Part shown: positions 3,401-9,241 of the stretch, piece after piece
Position numbering within the stretch: position 1 is the first letter of the stretch
Layout of the letters: the number at the start of each line of letters is the position of its first letter
Assembly (NCBI RefSeq): GCF_003334765.1
Contig: NZ_QOWT01000008.1
DNA from: Escherichia coli
GTDB taxonomy: Bacteria; Pseudomonadota; Gammaproteobacteria; Enterobacterales; Enterobacteriaceae
Length of the DNA stretch: 64,000 bases
Strand: one strand, 5' to 3'
The notes under the pieces: model-generated
Seen by the model: only the letters and a program-made list of their open reading frames with translations
Database searches by the model: none
Told to the model about the DNA's origin: nothing
Translations under genes and position numbers: made by a program

Positions 3401-4978
3401 ATGACGGAAAACATTCATAAGCATCGCATCCTCATTCTGGACTTCGGTTCTCAGTACACTCAACTGGTTGCGCGCCGCGTGCGTGAGCTGGGTGTTTACT
3501 GCGAACTGTGGGCGTGGGATGTGACAGAAGCACAAATTCGTGACTTCAATCCAAGCGGCATTATTCTTTCCGGCGGCCCGGAAAGTACTACTGAAGAAAA
3601 CAGTCCGCGTGCGCCGCAGTATGTCTTTGAAGCAGGCGTACCGGTATTCGGCGTTTGCTATGGCATGCAGACCATGGCAATGCAGTTGGGCGGTCACGTT
3701 GAAGCCTCTAACGAACGTGAATTTGGCTACGCGCAGGTTGAAGTCGTAAACGACAGCGCACTGGTTCGCGGTATCGAAGATGCGCTGACCGCAGACGGTA
3801 AACCGCTGCTCGATGTCTGGATGAGCCACGGCGATAAAGTTACCGCTATTCCGTCCGACTTCATCACCGTAGCCAGCACCGAAAGCTGCCCGTTTGCCAT
3901 TATGGCTAACGAAGAAAAACGCTTCTATGGCGTACAGTTCCACCCGGAAGTGACTCACACCCGCCAGGGTATGCGCATGCTGGAGCGTTTTGTGCGTGAT
4001 ATCTGCCAGTGTGAAGCCCTGTGGACGCCAGCGAAAATTATCGACGATGCTGTAGCTCGCATCCGCGAGCAGGTAGGCGACGATAAAGTCATCCTCGGCC
4101 TCTCTGGTGGTGTGGATTCCTCCGTAACCGCAATGCTGCTGCACCGCGCTATCGGTAAAAACCTGACTTGCGTATTCGTCGACAACGGCCTGCTGCGCCT
4201 CAACGAAGCAGAGCAGGTTCTGGATATGTTTGGCGATCACTTTGGTCTTAACATTGTTCACGTACCGGCAGAAGATCGCTTCCTGTCAGCGCTGGCTGGC
4301 GAAAACGATCCGGAAGCAAAACGTAAAATCATCGGTCGCGTTTTCGTTGAAGTATTCGATGAAGAAGCGCTGAAACTGGAAGACGTGAAGTGGCTGGCGC
4401 AGGGCACCATCTACCCTGACGTTATCGAATCTGCGGCGTCTGCAACCGGTAAAGCACACGTCATCAAATCTCACCACAACGTGGGCGGCCTGCCGAAAGA
4501 GATGAAGATGGGCCTGGTTGAACCGCTGAAAGAGCTGTTCAAAGACGAAGTGCGTAAGATTGGTCTGGAGCTGGGCCTGCCGTACGACATGCTGTACCGT
4601 CACCCGTTCCCGGGACCAGGCCTTGGCGTTCGTGTTCTGGGTGAAGTGAAGAAAGAGTACTGTGACCTGCTGCGCCGTGCTGACGCCATCTTCATTGAAG
4701 AACTGCGTAAAGCGGACCTGTACGACAAAGTCAGCCAGGCGTTCACTGTGTTCCTGCCGGTACGTTCCGTTGGCGTAATGGGCGATGGTCGTAAGTATGA
4801 CTGGGTTGTCTCTCTGCGTGCTGTCGAAACCATCGACTTTATGACCGCACACTGGGCGCATCTGCCGTACGATTTCCTCGGTCGCGTTTCCAACCGCATT
4901 ATCAATGAAGTGAACGGTATTTCCCGCGTGGTGTATGACATCAGCGGCAAGCCGCCAGCTACCATTGAGTGGGAATGA
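3401..4978 (+). CDS. guaA: GMP synthase (glutamine-hydrolysing)
   Basis: 525-aa [29 protein letters not shown]...; GATase plus ATP-PPase (SGGVDSS) motifs; ends ...TIEWE. Confidence 0.95.
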
Positions 4979-5002
4979 TTTGACCCTGCACTATGAATGA
5001 AC

Positions 5003-5032
5003 AAAACCCTCTGTTACTACAGAGGGTTTTTT
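5003..5032. terminator. Bidirectional rho-independent terminator between convergent guaA and yfgI
   Basis: AAAACCCTCTGT-tact-ACAGAGGGTTTTTT: 8-bp stem flanked by an A-run on one side and a T-run on the other. Confidence 0.75.
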
Positions 5033-5070
5033 ATCTTCAAGAATTATAGGATTGAAGTTACTAACATCGA

Positions 5071-5610
5071 TTAATTAAACCAGCTGTCCGATTTGTTCTC
5101 TTCTGCTTTGCCCACGCTTTTCATCAGATCGCGACCGCCTTCAGTCATATTTCTGTTGGCGTCAGCTTCAGATTGCACCACATCGGTTTGCGCAGCTTTG
5201 TGCTTCAGTTCCTGATCGATAAATTCGTTTTCTCGCTTAACGCGGGCTTCTTCTTTCGCCAGCGCCAGTTTTTGTTTCTGAATCTCTAAGCTGCGTAGCT
5301 CATCTTCATAACTTTGATCGCGTTTTTTGTCCGCAGAGGCTTCGGCGTCCAGTTTATCCTGACGAGCTTTCTTATTTGCCGCTGCCGTTGCCGCTCTTTT
5401 GTTAGCGGCGGCCTGGGCATTTGCGCGACGTTGCTTCTCTTGCTGGATTTCCCTGTTGCGCTCCGCGACCCATTCGTCATGCTGCCTTTGCTCTTCATTT
5501 TTACCTTGCTGTTCCGCTTCTGCGACAGCAGAGAGTTGATCCTGCAATGATGAGGCGATAGCCGGATAGCTTAAGGAGGCTAAGATGGCGCAAAGAAAAA
5601 CTTTCTTCAT
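5071..5610 (-). CDS. yfgI: Secreted low-complexity Lys/Glu/Ala/Gln-rich protein YfgI
   Basis: 179-aa ORF with signal peptide MKKVFLCAILASLSYPAIA followed by a charged coiled-coil-like region. Confidence 0.85.
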   Translation of the reverse strand: MKKVFLCAILASLSYPAIASSLQDQLSAVAEAEQQGKNEEQRQHDEWVAERNREIQQEKQRRANAQAAANKRAATAAANKKARQDKLDAEASADKKRDQSYEDELRSLEIQKQKLALAKEEARVKRENEFIDQELKHKAAQTDVVQSEADANRNMTEGGRDLMKSVGKAEENKSDSWFN

Positions 5611-5625
5611 GACTCCTCCTGATTA

Positions 5626-6144
5626 TTAGCTCTTTTCAGGACATTTGGTATTTGGCTGAATACGCGTTTCGTTATACGTCGTGGTAATAACAACGGCTAA
5701 ACCTGTCGTAAACTGGCACTCTTTACCCACCTGGGTAGAGGTATACACTTTGGTGCCTTCCTTATAGGTTAAAGAAACACCTTCCACTAAGGTTTTATCA
5801 TTCACCATAGAACCCGCTGCCGCGCCTACAGCTCCGCCGCCAACTGCACCTGCCGTCGTTCCGGAATTGCTGCCAGACCCGACGTTGTGGCCGATAACAC
5901 CGCCAGCGACTGCGCCAATAAGCGCGCCGAAGGCTTGTGCGTTCCGTTTATTTTGGGAGTTGTCTACGGCAACTTTTGCGGGAAGAATGGAAATAATATT
6001 AACGGTTTTAGTTTCTTGTTTGGTATTCAGTTGATCGGTTTGATAAACATCGGCAGCATGATCGTCAGCATTTGACTGGCATCCTGCCAGAGTGAATGAC
6101 GCTAACATTGCCACAGGCAGAAGACATTTTTTAAATTTCATCAC
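5626..6144 (-). CDS. yfgH: Outer-membrane lipoprotein with glycine-zipper domain, YfgH
   Basis: 172-aa ORF; lipobox LAGC at the end of the signal peptide; Gly-rich GxxxG repeat segment. Confidence 0.85.
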   Translation of the reverse strand: MMKFKKCLLPVAMLASFTLAGCQSNADDHAADVYQTDQLNTKQETKTVNIISILPAKVAVDNSQNKRNAQAFGALIGAVAGGVIGHNVGSGSNSGTTAGAVGGGAVGAAAGSMVNDKTLVEGVSLTYKEGTKVYTSTQVGKECQFTTGLAVVITTTYNETRIQPNTKCPEKS

Positions 6145-6454
6145 TATTCCTTGTTATACACATTACGAAAAATAAGACATTTAAGATCATCAAAAGAGGA
6201 AAGTAAATGTATTGCGTATAAAGGGATAGATTAAATTTATTAAAATTCACGCAGGGAATAATTTATAAAAATATATCATCACAACATATATATTAATTTT
6301 ATATTTATTTCGCAGCCAAACAGGATAAACATCAGTCAGGATAAAGACGTAAAATTTAAGATGAAAGAATATCTGCCGCTTTGATAATCCCAAACAGCAA
6401 AAGCATCCGACAGCGAAGTGCCGTTATGTTCTGTGAAAGTGGAGAAGGTAACCG

Positions 6455-6646
6455 CTAACGTTGTACCGGTGATTCGACGGAGAGTGTGGATTGCTGAGCT
6501 TCTTTTTTGCTCTGATGGTGCTGCCAGGCACCGACGGACGAGTAGATAAAACGGCCAAAGAAGAAGATAAAGCTGATGAGCAGTACGATACGGGTCATGC
6601 GACTGTTAAATCGGTGTCGTTTTCGCATACTGGTTGCCTGACTCAC
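6455..6646 (-). CDS. yfgG: Small single-pass membrane protein YfgG (63 aa)
   Basis: 63-aa ORF MSQATSMRKRHRFNSRMTRIVLLISFIFFFG... with one hydrophobic helix. Confidence 0.7.
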   Translation of the reverse strand: MSQATSMRKRHRFNSRMTRIVLLISFIFFFGRFIYSSVGAWQHHQSKKEAQQSTLSVESPVQR

Positions 6647-6856
6647 AAAAGGTTCCTTGAAGTATGTCCCACGCTGTGGACGGTACTTACATTAAGGCAC
6701 AACAGGACAAAATGGTCAATTCTTCGTTATGTAAAAAAGCGTCAGTGGATACATATTTTAATGTTATGGAAGTTAATTTAATTATTTACAATGATGATGT
6801 AATAATGATGAATTAACATGATAAACGTAATAATTCATTAATCAGGGTTATTTTGT

Positions 6857-6870
6857 TTGATATATATCAA
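6857..6870 (+). promoter_or_regulatory. FNR-type box TTGATATATATCAA upstream of pdeF
   Basis: Perfect match to TTGAT-N4-ATCAA, about 130 bp upstream of the pdeF ATG in an AT-rich divergent region. Confidence 0.6.
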
Positions 6871-6997
6871 TTGGTACTTTCATATGACACTTAGAATCAA
6901 TGCTCTCTATAGTGATGAATAATCATCATTCGAAGTCAGGTGGGATGCCTGTCTGAATACACCTCCTTCAGGATGTGGGGGATTCTGCTGAGCATCT

Positions 6998-9241
6998 ATG
7001 AAACTGAATGCAACTTATATAAAAATACGTGATAAATGGTGGGGGCTTCCGCTGTTCCTGCCTTCTTTAATCTTGCCCATTTTCGCCCACATTAATACTT
7101 TCGCGCATATTTCTTCCGGTGAGGTTTTTCTCTTTTATCTGCCTCTGGCACTGATGATCAGCATGATGATGTTTTTCAGCTGGGCGGCATTGCCAGGGAT
7201 CGCCTTAGGGATTTTTGTCCGCAAATATGCAGAGCTGGGTTTTTACGAAACGCTATCATTAACGGCTAATTTTATTATCATTATCATTCTCTGTTGGGGC
7301 GGTTACAGGGTCTTTACTCCCCGGCGTAACAACGTTTCACATGGTGATACCCGTTTAATTTCCCAGCGTATATTCTGGCAGATTGTGTTTCCTGCAACGC
7401 TGTTTCTGATACTTTTCCAGTTTGCTGCATTTGTAGGATTACTGGCGAGCAGAGAAAATCTGGTCGGTGTCATGCCTTTTAACCTCGGGACTTTAATCAA
7501 TTATCAGGCCTTACTGGTGGGTAATCTGATCGGTGTCCCGCTGTGCTACTTCATCATTCGGGTAGTGCGAAATCCATTTTATTTACGTAGCTATTATTCG
7601 CAATTAAAACAGCAGGTTGATGCCAAAGTCACCAAAAAAGAGTTCGCGCTCTGGCTACTGGCATTAGGTGCTTTATTGTTGCTGTTATGCATGCCGTTAA
7701 ATGAAAAAAGCACAATTTTTAGCACCAATTATACCTTGTCATTATTGCTGCCCCTGATGATGTGGGGAGCGATGCGCTATGGTTATAAGCTGATTTCGCT
7801 GCTCTGGGCGGTCGTGTTGATGATCAGCATCCACAGCTATCAAAATTACATTCCCATTTATCCTGGCTATACCACGCAGCTGACCATAACCTCCTCCAGT
7901 TATCTGGTATTCTCTTTTATTGTCAATTATATGGCTGTACTGGCAACCCGTCAGAGAGCGGTAGTCAGACGCATTCAGCGGCTTGCGTATGTGGACCCGG
8001 TGGTTCATCTGCCAAATGTTCGCGCCCTGAATCGCGCGTTGCGTGATGCCCCCTGGTCTGCGCTTTGTTATTTACGCATCCCTGGCATGGAAATGCTGGT
8101 TAAGAACTATGGCATCATGCTGCGGATTCAATACAAGCAAAAACTTTCTCACTGGCTGTCACCCTTGCTGGAACCGGGTGAAGATGTTTATCAGCTTTCG
8201 GGTAACGATCTCGCGCTGCGACTGAATACAGAATCGCACCAGGAGCGCATTACCGCACTGGATAGCCATCTCAAGCAATTTCGTTTCTTTTGGGATGGCA
8301 TGCCGATGCAACCGCAGATTGGCGTCAGTTACTGCTATGTGCGCTCGCCAGTGAATCATATCTACCTGCTGCTGGGAGAGCTAAATACGGTCGCCGAACT
8401 TTCCATCGTGACCAACGCCCCGGAAAATATGCAGCGTCGCGGGGCAATGTATTTGCAACGCGAATTGAAAGATAAAGTCGCGATGATGAATCGACTACAG
8501 CAGGCGCTGGAACACAACCATTTTTTCCTGATGGCCCAGCCGATTACCGGTATGCGTGGTGATGTTTACCATGAAATTCTTCTGCGCATGAAAGGTGAGA
8601 ATGATGAACTGATCAGCCCCGATAGCTTCTTGCCGGTCGCGCACGAATTTGGTTTATCGTCGAGTATCGACATGTGGGTCATTGAGCATACGCTGCAATT
8701 TATGGCTGAAAACAGAGCGAAGATGCCCGCTCACCGTTTTGCTATTAATCTGTCTCCAACCTCGGTATGTCAGGCTCGTTTTCCTGTTGAAGTCAGTCAG
8801 TTGCTGGCTAAATATCAGATTGAAGCGTGGCAACTTATTTTTGAAGTCACCGAAAGTAATGCTCTGACCAATGTTAAGCAGGCGCAAATCACCTTGCAGC
8901 ATCTTCAGGAATTAGGCTGCCAGATTGCGATTGATGATTTCGGCACCGGCTACGCCAGCTATGCGCGGCTTAAAAATGTGAATGCCGATCTGCTTAAAAT
9001 TGACGGCAGTTTTATCCGCAATATTGTGTCAAATAGTCTGGATTATCAGATAGTGGCATCGATTTGCCACCTGGCGCGAATGAAGAAAATGCTGGTAGTG
9101 GCAGAGTACGTTGAAAACGAAGAGATCCGCGAGGCGGTGCTCTCTTTGGGGATCGATTATATGCAGGGTTATCTTATTGGTAAGCCGCAGCCGTTAATTG
9201 ATACGCTGAATGAAATCGAACCCATTCGCGAAAGTGCCTGA
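6998..9241 (+). CDS. pdeF: Cyclic-di-GMP phosphodiesterase PdeF (YfgF): MASE1 membrane domain, degenerate GGDEF, EAL domain
   Basis: 747-aa ORF; multiple N-terminal TM helices; C-terminal EAL domain. Confidence 0.9.
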   Translation: MKLNATYIKIRDKWWGLPLFLPSLILPIFAHINTFAHISSGEVFLFYLPLALMISMMMFFSWAALPGIALGIFVRKYAELGFYETLSLTANFIIIIILCWGGYRVFTPRRNNVSHGDTRLISQRIFWQIVFPATLFLILFQFAAFVGLLASRENLVGVMPFNLGTLINYQALLVGNLIGVPLCYFIIRVVRNPFYLRSYYSQLKQQVDAKVTKKEFALWLLALGALLLLLCMPLNEKSTIFSTNYTLSLLLPLMMWGAMRYGYKLISLLWAVVLMISIHSYQNYIPIYPGYTTQLTITSSSYLVFSFIVNYMAVLATRQRAVVRRIQRLAYVDPVVHLPNVRALNRALRDAPWSALCYLRIPGMEMLVKNYGIMLRIQYKQKLSHWLSPLLEPGEDVYQLSGNDLALRLNTESHQERITALDSHLKQFRFFWDGMPMQPQIGVSYCYVRSPVNHIYLLLGELNTVAELSIVTNAPENMQRRGAMYLQRELKDKVAMMNRLQQALEHNHFFLMAQPITGMRGDVYHEILLRMKGENDELISPDSFLPVAHEFGLSSSIDMWVIEHTLQFMAENRAKMPAHRFAINLSPTSVCQARFPVEVSQLLAKYQIEAWQLIFEVTESNALTNVKQAQITLQHLQELGCQIAIDDFGTGYASYARLKNVNADLLKIDGSFIRNIVSNSLDYQIVASICHLARMKKMLVVAEYVENEEIREAVLSLGIDYMQGYLIGKPQPLIDTLNEIEPIRESA

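Follow-up and report, generated by a model that had tools for sequence, protein, structure and literature searches.

Two probable genetic units in the yfgI-pdeF region

The region studied here covers positions 5071 to 6997 of a 64,000-nucleotide (nt) stretch of the Escherichia coli contig NZ_QOWT01000008.1 (GCF_003334765.1), a stretch that we call the window. It contains the genes yfgI, yfgH and yfgG with two long spacers, and borders pdeF (yfgF), the gene of an anaerobically expressed phosphodiesterase of cyclic di-guanosine monophosphate (c-di-GMP). We consider it probable that two independent genetic units lie here side by side, that the long spacers are their control regions, and that the pdeF mRNA begins with a conserved, structured leader. 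The first unit would be an operon-like yfgH-yfgI pair, coding for an outer-membrane glycine-zipper lipoprotein and a secreted DUF5384 protein, and the second the divergent genes yfgG and pdeF, separated by a nearly fixed spacer of ~350 bp. Annotation or earlier publications already cover the genes, the FNR and yfgG promoters and the termination signals. This analysis adds the separation of yfgHI, as a mobile module, from the conserved pair of yfgG and pdeF, and a description of the leader, which is the sole element that looks new and seems to be undescribed.

The pairing of yfgG with pdeF was followed in a YfgG scan with one genome per species (37 loci). In every locus that extends far enough, pdeF lies divergently upstream of yfgG, and the spacer between them measures 338-366 bp in 32 of 35 loci. 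The same arrangement was reached from the other side, as yfgG is present in all 76 metagenomic loci anchored on the pdeF leader that have enough upstream sequence (modal spacer 350-352 bp). From gene order, yfgG and pdeF appear to be a conserved divergent pair throughout Enterobacteriaceae. A constraint on the spacer length itself, with its two halves compensating each other, was considered and dropped. By our estimate, ~194-210 bp separate the FNR box from the yfgG start codon and ~135-150 bp separate it from the pdeF AUG; since these two distances vary independently, there is no sign of a constraint beyond a low indel rate.

The other two genes are distributed differently. In most genera yfgG occurs without yfgHI, and in the 37 loci yfgHI follow yfgG only in Escherichia and Citrobacter amalonaticus. 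The gene order of S. bongori is that of E. coli, and in C. portucalensis a gene for an MscS-like channel stands between yfgG and yfgH. YfgI homologues form only 258 clusters from few enterobacterial genera, and in the loci examined yfgI always lies 10-16 nt downstream of a yfgH-like gene (15 bp in the window). Two short contigs of Enterobacter hormaechei carry a yfgH/yfgI-like pair alongside HigB and MobC genes, and no yfgG is called next to the pair. A yfgI homologue with 55-70% identity occurs on around 196 small plasmids from E. coli and Salmonella (3.9-7.5 kb among those listed). In the one plasmid examined, the mobilizable ColRNAI-type CP056397.1 (1163-4537), a glycine-zipper gene is immediately upstream of the yfgI homologue, again with no yfgG called beside. 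The plasmid pair adjoins a phosphoethanolamine transferase gene, possibly mcr-like. This neighbour hints at a link of the pair with lipid A or outer-membrane remodelling; it fits the outer-membrane-stabilising role proposed for YfgH and suggests that YfgI is the functional partner of YfgH.

In other genera, the interval between yfgG and guaA contains nothing (63-214 bp left), a LysR regulator with a major facilitator superfamily (MFS) transporter, a LysE-type exporter, an MscS-like channel or phage lysis genes, and is a hotspot of lineage-specific cargo. The LysR and MFS genes were seen in Klebsiella, Kluyvera and Raoultella, the LysE-type exporter in Phytobacter and Kosakonia, and the phage lysis genes in Superficieibacter electus; several genera have an empty slot. 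Because of the patchy distribution, the plasmid carriage and the variable slot occupancy, we read yfgHI as a mobile two-gene envelope module in a variable chromosomal slot. It does not look like a classical island, since no integrase, tRNA or flanking repeats were seen.

The preliminary description of this DNA presented yfgI, yfgH and yfgG as one cluster, which is misleading in view of the different histories of yfgHI and yfgG in the gene-neighbourhood scans. A stronger form of that idea, in which the three would be a functional envelope-stress cluster with products acting together, is improbable. The three products are all envelope-located, their genes are adjacent in every E. coli as well as in S. 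bongori, all the reported phenotypes concern stress tolerance, and when Rho is inhibited yfgG transcripts read on towards yfgH (PMC7815308). Nevertheless, transcription from yfgG to yfgH is terminated (PMC7815308), yfgG lacks yfgHI in most genera, the pair occurs with no called yfgG on CP056397.1 and on the two E. hormaechei contigs, and the MscS-like gene intervenes in C. portucalensis. The phenotypes also differ, being nickel and cobalt tolerance for one gene, outer-membrane integrity and cardiolipin for another and nalidixic acid sensitivity for the third.

A conserved, probably structured leader in the pdeF mRNA

The pdeF leader is ~93 nt long, from a transcription start site (TSS) placed at ~6905 to the AUG at 6998. 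It consists of a variable 5' hairpin (P1) and a 64-nt core, conserved to about the same degree as the promoters (Table 1), in which a pyrimidine-rich linker is followed by a near-invariant GAGCATCT immediately before the pdeF ATG. The leader is single-copy, and 5345 of 5408 E. coli genomes (98.8%) carry an identical version, as compared with 4180 of 5416 (77%) for the adjacent 97 nt. A covariance model (R1), built from an unbiased alignment of 34 sequences, gives one match per locus and only one in the window (6929-7000, 78.9 bits), and rejects chance matches of the DNA pattern that we used to scan metagenomes. That scan returned 54 distinct cores, of which ~38 are true leaders.

Three helices could form in the core, P2, P3 and P4, of which P3 excludes P2 and crosses P4. 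In an alignment of 57 distinct sequences (A4), 81% of the cells of P3 and P4 are paired. Double changes occur in seven pairs, against 3.8 in shuffles (reached in 2 of 500), the covariation score is 0.220 against 0.148 (0 of 500), and of seven slid registers the given one does best. Figures for P2 with P4 are similar, and the unbiased alignment (A3) gives the same picture with less power. Because the register of P4 shifts between lineages, we also ran an arm-swap test, in which each 5' arm is paired with the 3' arms of other sequences, on 29 representatives with less than 85% identity. The native value was reached in 37-77 of 20000 permutations for P4 and in 92-290 of 20000 for P3, and p is ~0.002-0.015 for the crossing helices. 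The arms of P4 change together, as ACCCA/UGGGU, AUACCC/GGGUAU, AAACCC/GGGUUU, ACCCUG/UAGGGU, GCCUC/GAGGU, AGCC/GGCU, CCCG/CGGG and GCCC/GGGC. We take this as moderate evidence, not decisive, for an H-type pseudoknot of P3 and P4 in which both helices show compensatory change.

At the paired positions, G-U combinations outnumber A-C ones by 24 to 6, 36 to 4 and 22 to 8 (82 against 18 over P2-P4). This large excess argues for an RNA on the sense strand of pdeF and not for a DNA palindrome. The conserved non-coding element, which the preliminary description had missed, is the cis-acting leader of the pdeF mRNA and not a separate RNA gene.

The case for a folded core has several weaknesses. The pattern by which the metagenomic sequences were preselected left segment b and the start region no freedom to vary, and A4 was fitted to the model. 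P2 is not significant alone in the arm-swap test. RNAalifold recovers only three pairs from a plain MAFFT alignment, and the single E. coli leader folds no better than its shuffles (z = -0.25). As the primary sequence is so conserved, the covariation rests on few independent events. Finally, Siccibacter lacks both GGA motifs of the core, and K. indica lacks GGA1 and P4.

A shuffle test of P4 in single sequences is uninformative, since C-rich and G-rich arms pair in any order. Two further candidates were rejected. Helix P5, between the GGAU of the P4 loop and a downstream AUCC, has pair counts not above shuffles and an arm-swap result of 3270 in 5000. A mini-ORF (open reading frame) AUG-CCU-GYC-UGA at the P2 loop lacks its AUG in about one quarter of the unbiased sequences, whereas the GGA is kept.

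The P1 hairpin is of another kind. Most lineages have a hairpin of unrelated sequence at its position (mean z = -1.2), and Phytobacter, Kosakonia and the Citrobacter freundii-like group have none. Compared by eye with the Fur, NikR and RcnR consensus sequences, the P1 repeat gave no convincing match.

Possible functions of the pdeF leader

Our reading, held tentatively, is that the core could be an undescribed, Enterobacteriaceae-wide cis-regulatory RNA switch between the P3/P4 pseudoknot and a form with two hairpins, each showing a GGA in its loop. The CCUG segment would pair either with the upstream CAGG, forming P2 with GGA1 in its 7-nt loop, or with the CAGG of the P4 loop, forming P3 and with it the pseudoknot. 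Such a switch would act post-transcriptionally, on the translation and/or the stability of the mRNA of the anaerobic c-di-GMP phosphodiesterase.

As for the effector, CsrA is the best single candidate, although we regard its involvement as possible rather than probable. A CsrA dimer would bind both GGA loops and favour P2 with P4 over the P3/P4 pseudoknot, and displacing the pseudoknot might make the start region, where the Shine-Dalgarno sequence (GAG) is weak, more or less accessible. GGA is kept in the P2 loop by 55 of the 57 distinct sequences and in the P4 loop by 54. The two are spaced by 28 nt, which fits the 10-63 nt over which a CsrA dimer bridges sites (PMC4066749), and the variants of site 2 (AGGA, CGGGA, TGGGA and CTGGA) are all on the primary or secondary CsrA lists of the same study. 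As to the display of GGA in loops, covariation supports the P4 hairpin, P2 is conserved and not significant alone, and the rival helix P3, which is also supported, pairs the two G's of GGA2.

CsrA is a less comfortable candidate on other counts. No GGA overlaps the weak Shine-Dalgarno sequence (GAG at -9), the nearest one being at about -27/-28, and GGA1 is usually UUGGA, not an A(N)GGA site. Two sites are conserved, fewer than the three of CSRA_TARGET (PMC4066749), although the nearest one is inside its -30 to +5 window. Neither pdeF, yfgF nor yfgG appears in the supplements of the E. coli CsrA study by crosslinking-immunoprecipitation sequencing (CLIP-seq) and integrated transcriptomics (PMC5694010). 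This absence is uninformative if those cultures were aerobic, as we assume, since pdeF is induced anaerobically. A literature search returned no report linking CsrA to pdeF regulation.

Three other explanations of the core were weighed. It is doubtful that the core is a base-pairing target of a small RNA (sRNA) or a self-contained element that masks the ribosome-binding site or responds to temperature or structure, through pairing of the P2-loop GGAUGC with GCAUCU(A) at the start codon. These two most invariant blocks are indeed complementary over 6-7 nt, with 87% of the cells paired in the unbiased alignment against 19-52% in slid registers. The minimum-free-energy fold of the E. coli leader uses this pairing, and with a weak Shine-Dalgarno sequence the access to the start region could be limiting. 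Tried as helix P6, nevertheless, the pairing shows zero compensatory changes: variation on one side is not matched on the other (seen by eye for Superficieibacter, CTSoil and Ent_CC12).

A riboswitch-like pseudoknot sensing a small molecule, for instance a guanine nucleotide or a c-di-GMP-related metabolite, instead of a protein site is unlikely. The crossing P3 and P4, both supported by covariation, would build a compact H-type pseudoknot of ~35 nt, mostly with no nucleotides between the stems, its loop and junction nucleotides are near-invariant, and it precedes the gene of a nucleotide-second-messenger enzyme; lacking an Rfam match, it would be a new class. Confinement to one gene in one bacterial family is, on the other hand, unusual for riboswitch classes, and the sequence names no ligand. 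The 3' strand of the pseudoknot ends ~16 nt before the AUG and leaves the Shine-Dalgarno sequence uncovered, no convincing terminator follows, and the AUUU loop between P3 and P4 (3-4 nt) seems short to span a stem of 4-5 bp.

Very unlikely is the third explanation, that the conservation past the pdeF TSS reflects DNA operators for BasR, a nitrate/nitrite regulator or another roadblock repressor, with the inverted repeats as protein-binding palindromes. BasR binds a yfgF promoter fragment in vitro, at an unmapped site, and represses 2.3-fold (PMC12419081), CAGG-N7-CCTG and ACCC-N9-GGGT are inverted repeats, and the P1 repeat TGATGA-ATAA-TCATCA overlaps +9 to +24. Against this, the pairing tolerates G-U and not A-C, both arms change together, only the ability of P1 to form a hairpin is conserved and not its sequence, and the best match in a search for BasR/PmrA boxes has two mismatches, no better than chance.

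Promoters between yfgG and pdeF

Spacer 2 (6647-6997, 351 bp) was aligned from 30 spacers of ~15 genera (A1; identities in Table 1). It is best described as the yfgG promoter with a short leader, a poorly conserved, AT-rich middle to which H-NS is reported to bind, the FNR promoter and the ~93-nt pdeF leader. H-NS binding in this spacer has been reported (PMC3946193). The conserved A1 blocks on the yfgG side match the published promoter TTGACC-17-CTTAAT (PMC3946193), which is bound by sigma70 and sigmaS holoenzymes (PMC3946193; PMC4447067). Its TSS, 37 nt upstream of the start codon, is inside a chromatin immunoprecipitation peak of the sigmaS holoenzyme (PMC4447067). The yfgG leader keeps a small 5' hairpin (6666-6681) and an AAGGAAC Shine-Dalgarno sequence as near-invariant blocks, both in A1 and in another alignment, A5.

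On the pdeF side, a perfect FNR box TTGAT-N4-ATCAA at 6857-6870 is the sole one in the window (0.11 expected). It is centred at 6863.5 and lies 21 bp upstream of the -10 element TAGAAT, which implies the pdeF TSS at ~6905, and 61 of 64 distinct leaders retain the box at an unchanged distance. This agrees with the known class II FNR promoter with a box at -41.5 (PMC3718329, citing Lacey et al. 2010) and with FNR- and anaerobiosis-dependent transcription of pdeF (PMC3718329; PMC4207228). The suggestion in the preliminary description that the spacers could hold complex promoters was thus borne out for spacer 2, with its FNR box, sigma70/sigmaS yfgG promoter and reported binding of H-NS and BasR.

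The same spacer had been called ORF-free together with spacer 1, which holds only approximately. Mechanical ORFs of 39-50 aa are present, and the Prokaryotic Genome Annotation Pipeline (PGAP) calls an ORF at 6664-6816(+) as a gene. That ORF, which runs opposite to the yfgG promoter and leader and overlaps both, is not in the K-12 annotation, has no family match and is not kept in other genera; the call is probably spurious.

Between the two promoters, at 6746-6790 (A1 columns ~110-150), there is a semi-conserved block ACAT-N6-ATGTTAT(A/G)(T/G)AA, ~75-90 bp upstream of the yfgG TSS, which in Klebsiella and Kluyvera is the perfect palindrome ACATTAATTAATGT. It could be a transcription-factor site, and an ArcA-like direct repeat was considered. 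In some E. coli genomes, an insertion sequence (IS) element, IS1 or IS5, is found within the 2-kb locus. In E. albertii NBRC 107761 (positions 1-270), the sequence changes abruptly close to the upstream side of the yfgG -35 element, shortly before the end of the contig. We presume that the new sequence is an IS1 insA frame; if so, the yfgG-pdeF control region is interrupted there.

Termination and the small-RNA claim in the yfgG-yfgH spacer

Spacer 1 (6145-6454, 310 bp) can be read in the direction of transcription as a 92-nt yfgG 3' untranslated region (UTR) with a putative weak intrinsic terminator, an AT-rich, fast-evolving stretch in which Rho halts read-through, and, in its last ~65 bp, a predicted yfgH promoter. 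Published Term-seq positions were converted to window positions by subtracting the K-12 coordinate from 2635936. On the yfgG strand, the dominant RNA 3' end, K-12 2629573 (+), corresponds to 6363, 92 nt past the stop codon (PMC7815308), and is preceded by an imperfect 7-bp hairpin (6367-6389) and UUUC; the terminator scan gave a second weak hairpin at 6408-6423. The bicyclomycin-sensitive (Rho) peak at K-12 2629689 (Rho score 8.5, p ~1e-48; PMC7815308) corresponds to ~6247, 208 nt downstream of the yfgG stop.

Only 1467 of 5416 E. coli genomes (27%) match the spacer centre, 6208-6362, at 99% identity or more, 1907 (35%) fall below 95%, and in E. albertii and C. amalonaticus the centre cannot be aligned. 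Some strains have IS elements within it. In E. coli, E. albertii and C. amalonaticus, conservation is restricted to the 65-70 bp adjoining yfgH, with an AAGGA Shine-Dalgarno sequence just upstream of the start codon; C. amalonaticus keeps the -35 element and the Shine-Dalgarno sequence of this block. We infer from consensus and conservation that the block is the yfgH promoter. The predicted nature of this promoter, together with the Rho and Term-seq cultures having been aerobic (LB or M63), are the weaker points of the two-unit reading.

The preliminary description also proposed that the spacers hold small RNAs, and this is not supported. Rfam 15, scanned in E-value mode (E <= 1) over 4500-7500 on both strands, gave no family match for the spacers or the pdeF leader and only a chance match to a long non-coding RNA (E = 0.96). 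The K-12 annotation has no sRNA or small protein in the spacers, and promoter-plus-terminator pairs do not exceed chance there. In spacer 1, the published Term-seq data have nothing other than the 3' end of yfgG and the Rho zone (PMC7815308). A free-standing sRNA with its own promoter and terminator, in one or both spacers, would suit their length and AT-richness, the consensus promoter-like hexamers on the + strand of spacer 1, and the "orphan" RNA 3' end and "orphan" Rho region that map in spacer 1. These same signals, however, have simpler sources. Promoter-like sites occur at shuffle frequency (5 found, 4.5 expected), and both the orphan 3' end and the Rho peak come from the yfgG strand, at the distances from the stop that an mRNA 3' UTR and its read-through would give. 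The conserved blocks of spacer 2 are all explained by two promoters and two mRNA leaders. A conserved sRNA in spacer 1 is unlikely, given that the centre of this spacer is hypervariable among E. coli strains themselves and cannot be aligned in the closest relatives. We hold the sRNA reading to be largely refuted, and what is left of it highly improbable.

The Rho data set contains another termination region at ~9037(-), antisense to the 3' part of pdeF (K-12 2626899, + strand; PMC7815308). Being downstream of the ppx stop on the ppx strand, it may reflect ppx read-through.

Gene calls and proteins of the locus

The gene order guaA(+), yfgI(-), yfgH(-), yfgG(-), pdeF(+), ppx(-) is given by both the RefSeq and the K-12 annotations. 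Many E. coli chromosomes match the sequence around 5071-6997 at 100% identity, and the locus was found in all 5426 complete E. coli genomes searched; the trio and its spacers are an ordinary, already annotated E. coli core locus. The coordinates of the genes and their description as a low-complexity protein (YfgI), a glycine-zipper protein (YfgH) and a 63-aa single-helix protein (YfgG) were right, as judged from ORFs, annotation and Pfam.

Table 1. Features of the yfgI-pdeF region (window coordinates; identity, mean pairwise identity in alignment A1)
Feature	Position	Strand	Description
Probable bidirectional intrinsic terminator	5003-5030	.	G+C-rich hairpin, 12-bp stem, T-runs on both sides; between convergent guaA and yfgI (terminator scan)
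yfgI	5071-5610	-	179 aa; secreted low-complexity DUF5384 protein; second gene of yfgH-yfgI
yfgH	5626-6144	-	SlyB-like glycine-zipper outer-membrane lipoprotein (lipobox, Pfam matches)
Predicted yfgH promoter	6179-6207	-	-35 TTTACT (6207-6202), 17-bp spacer, -10 TTAAAT (6184-6179); consensus and conservation
Hypervariable AT-rich centre of spacer 1	6208-6362	-	GC 0.26; includes the published Rho peak
yfgG 3' UTR	6363-6454	-	92 nt; Term-seq 3' end, terminator scan and sequence
yfgG	6455-6646	-	63 aa; single-pass membrane protein with one hydrophobic helix; DUF2633
yfgG 5' UTR and promoter	6647-6719	-	37-nt UTR, TSS ~6683; -10 CTTAAT (6696-6691), -35 TTGACC (6719-6714); identity 0.66 (5' UTR) and 0.66 (-10/-35)
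PGAP "hypothetical protein" WP_000017552.1, probably spurious	6664-6816	+	50 aa; in many E. coli strains, e.g. NZ_CP104788.1
Part of spacer 2	6791-6850		Identity 0.34
pdeF class II FNR promoter	6857-6897	+	FNR box TTGATATATATCAA (6857-6870); -10 TAGAAT (6892-6897); identity 0.58 (FNR box to -10)
P1 region	6900-6933		Identity 0.32
P1 hairpin	6911-6930	+	aGTGATGA-ATAA-TCATCAtt, near the pdeF mRNA 5' end; segment fold z = -3.7
Conserved leader core	6934-6997	+	64 nt; identity 0.64, against 0.32 in the adjacent P1 region
P2 (predicted)	6934-6940 with 6948-6954	+	AGUCAGG/CCUGUCU; loop 6941-6947 UGGGAUG, GGA1 at 6943-6945
P3 (predicted)	6948-6951 with 6969-6972	+	CCUG of P2 with CAGG in the P4 loop; excludes P2, crosses P4
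P4 (predicted)	6962-6966 with 6977-6981	+	CCUCC/GGGGG; loop 6967-6976 UUCAGGAUGU, GGA2 at 6971-6973
pdeF (yfgF)	6998-9241	+	MASE1 / degenerate GGDEF / EAL c-di-GMP phosphodiesterase, expressed anaerobically

The spacers are AT-rich as described, with GC minima of 0.26 (spacer 1) and 0.255 (spacer 2) against ~0.5 in the flanking genes, and their lengths of about 310 and 350 bp were confirmed. The 351-bp spacer, however, parts yfgG from pdeF and not two members of the trio. Their description as unusually long is relative. The 50 kb of K-12 that surround the locus have 44 intergenic gaps, of which the 351-bp gap ranks 2nd and the 310-bp gap 4th in length. The latter is the longest between co-directional genes, whereas 351 bp is normal for divergent genes, nearby divergent gaps having 380 and 324 bp.

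YfgI has a signal-like N-terminus, MKKVFLCAILASLSYPAIA, K, E, A, Q, R and D make up 66% of the residues of the mature protein, and the profile match to Pfam DUF5384 has an E-value of 9.1e-62. Its length in E. coli is variable (170, 172, 173, 175, 177, 178, 179 or 180 aa at 91-99% identity), which suggests frequent in-frame indels in the low-complexity K/E/A/Q region.

The signal sequence of YfgH ends in the lipobox L-A-G-C, followed by QS, position +2 thus being Gln and not Asp. Pfam matches are Rick_17kDa_Anti, Gly-zipper_YMGG and Gly-zipper_Omp (PF05433 at 7e-08, PF13441 and PF13488), and the NCBIfam scores are below the curated cut-offs. The annotated start of yfgH is a GTG (172 aa, MMKF...), with an ATG one codon downstream, at 6141. 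The ATG (171-aa form) is probably the true start, because its spacing to the AAGGA Shine-Dalgarno sequence is better and the 171-aa orthologues of other Escherichia lineages and S. bongori use ATG. YfgG matches Pfam DUF2633 (4.3e-28).

The trio was described as poorly characterised, which is outdated, as roles or phenotypes are now published for all three. A preprint of December 2025 (10.64898/2025.12.22.696046) reports YfgH as an outer-membrane stabiliser predicted to form ring-like oligomers. Deletion of yfgH causes sensitivity to sodium dodecyl sulphate/ethylenediaminetetraacetic acid and loss of outer-membrane proteins, suppressed by clsA mutations (same preprint). For nickel and cobalt tolerance yfgG is needed, and overexpressed yfgG is sufficient (PMC6338753). 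Mutants of yfgI are reported to be sensitive to DNA damage and nalidixic acid, and the yfgHI orthologues of S. Typhi, srgIL, are activated by SdiA, which an E. coli yfgHI fusion is not (PMC11619404). The yfgG mRNA is among the transcripts most capped with nicotinamide adenine dinucleotide, 24-40% (PMC8040648), and Term-seq has a strong "internal" RNA 3' end at 6512(-) (K-12 2629424), 134 nt into the 192-nt yfgG ORF (PMC7815308).

Implications and comparison with known systems

If the reading of the leader is true, FNR-induced pdeF would be under a second, post-transcriptional layer of control besides oxygen. Were CsrA the effector, the Csr and c-di-GMP networks would be linked under anaerobiosis; the effector might instead be a ligand. 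CsrA controls other c-di-GMP enzymes, dgcZ and dgcT, and for this reason one more CsrA target would be incremental, though coherent. A ligand-sensing pseudoknot, if true, would be more surprising. The grouping of yfgG with pdeF also suggests looking for a link between a nickel/cobalt-tolerance peptide and an anaerobic c-di-GMP phosphodiesterase.

Compared with known systems, the pdeF promoter is fully like other class II FNR promoters, with no difference, and this part is already known. The "orphan" 3' end, 92 nt past the stop codon of yfgG, and the bicyclomycin-sensitive region ~115 nt beyond it place yfgG among the long 3' UTRs with Rho-dependent termination (Adams et al. 2021), as one of hundreds and nothing special. 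YfgH resembles SlyB-type lipoproteins in its lipobox and glycine-zipper 2TM domain. It differs from SlyB in its suppressors, which are in clsA for yfgH and in the Mla pathway for slyB according to the preprint (10.64898/2025.12.22.696046), and in always having a DUF5384 gene as its partner, unlike slyB.

The pdeF leader shares with CsrA-controlled leaders (glgC, cstA, pgaA, dgcZ/ydeH and dgcT/ycdT, with ymdA as a case of activation) two GGA motifs in loops 28 nt apart and, with some of them, a c-di-GMP enzyme gene downstream. It differs from them in that its GGA motifs are off the Shine-Dalgarno sequence, site 1 is mostly UUGGA, the sites are only two and GGA2 would be partly paired in P3. From H-type pseudoknot RNAs, such as the preQ1-I, SAM-II and guanidine-III riboswitches and the rpsO leader pseudoknot, the core differs in having no Rfam match, in a predicted pseudoknot that excludes the Shine-Dalgarno sequence and in its restriction to one gene in Enterobacteriaceae. 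It is like them in its two short crossing helices with little or no linker, in conserved loop nucleotides and in its position in the 5' UTR near the start codon.

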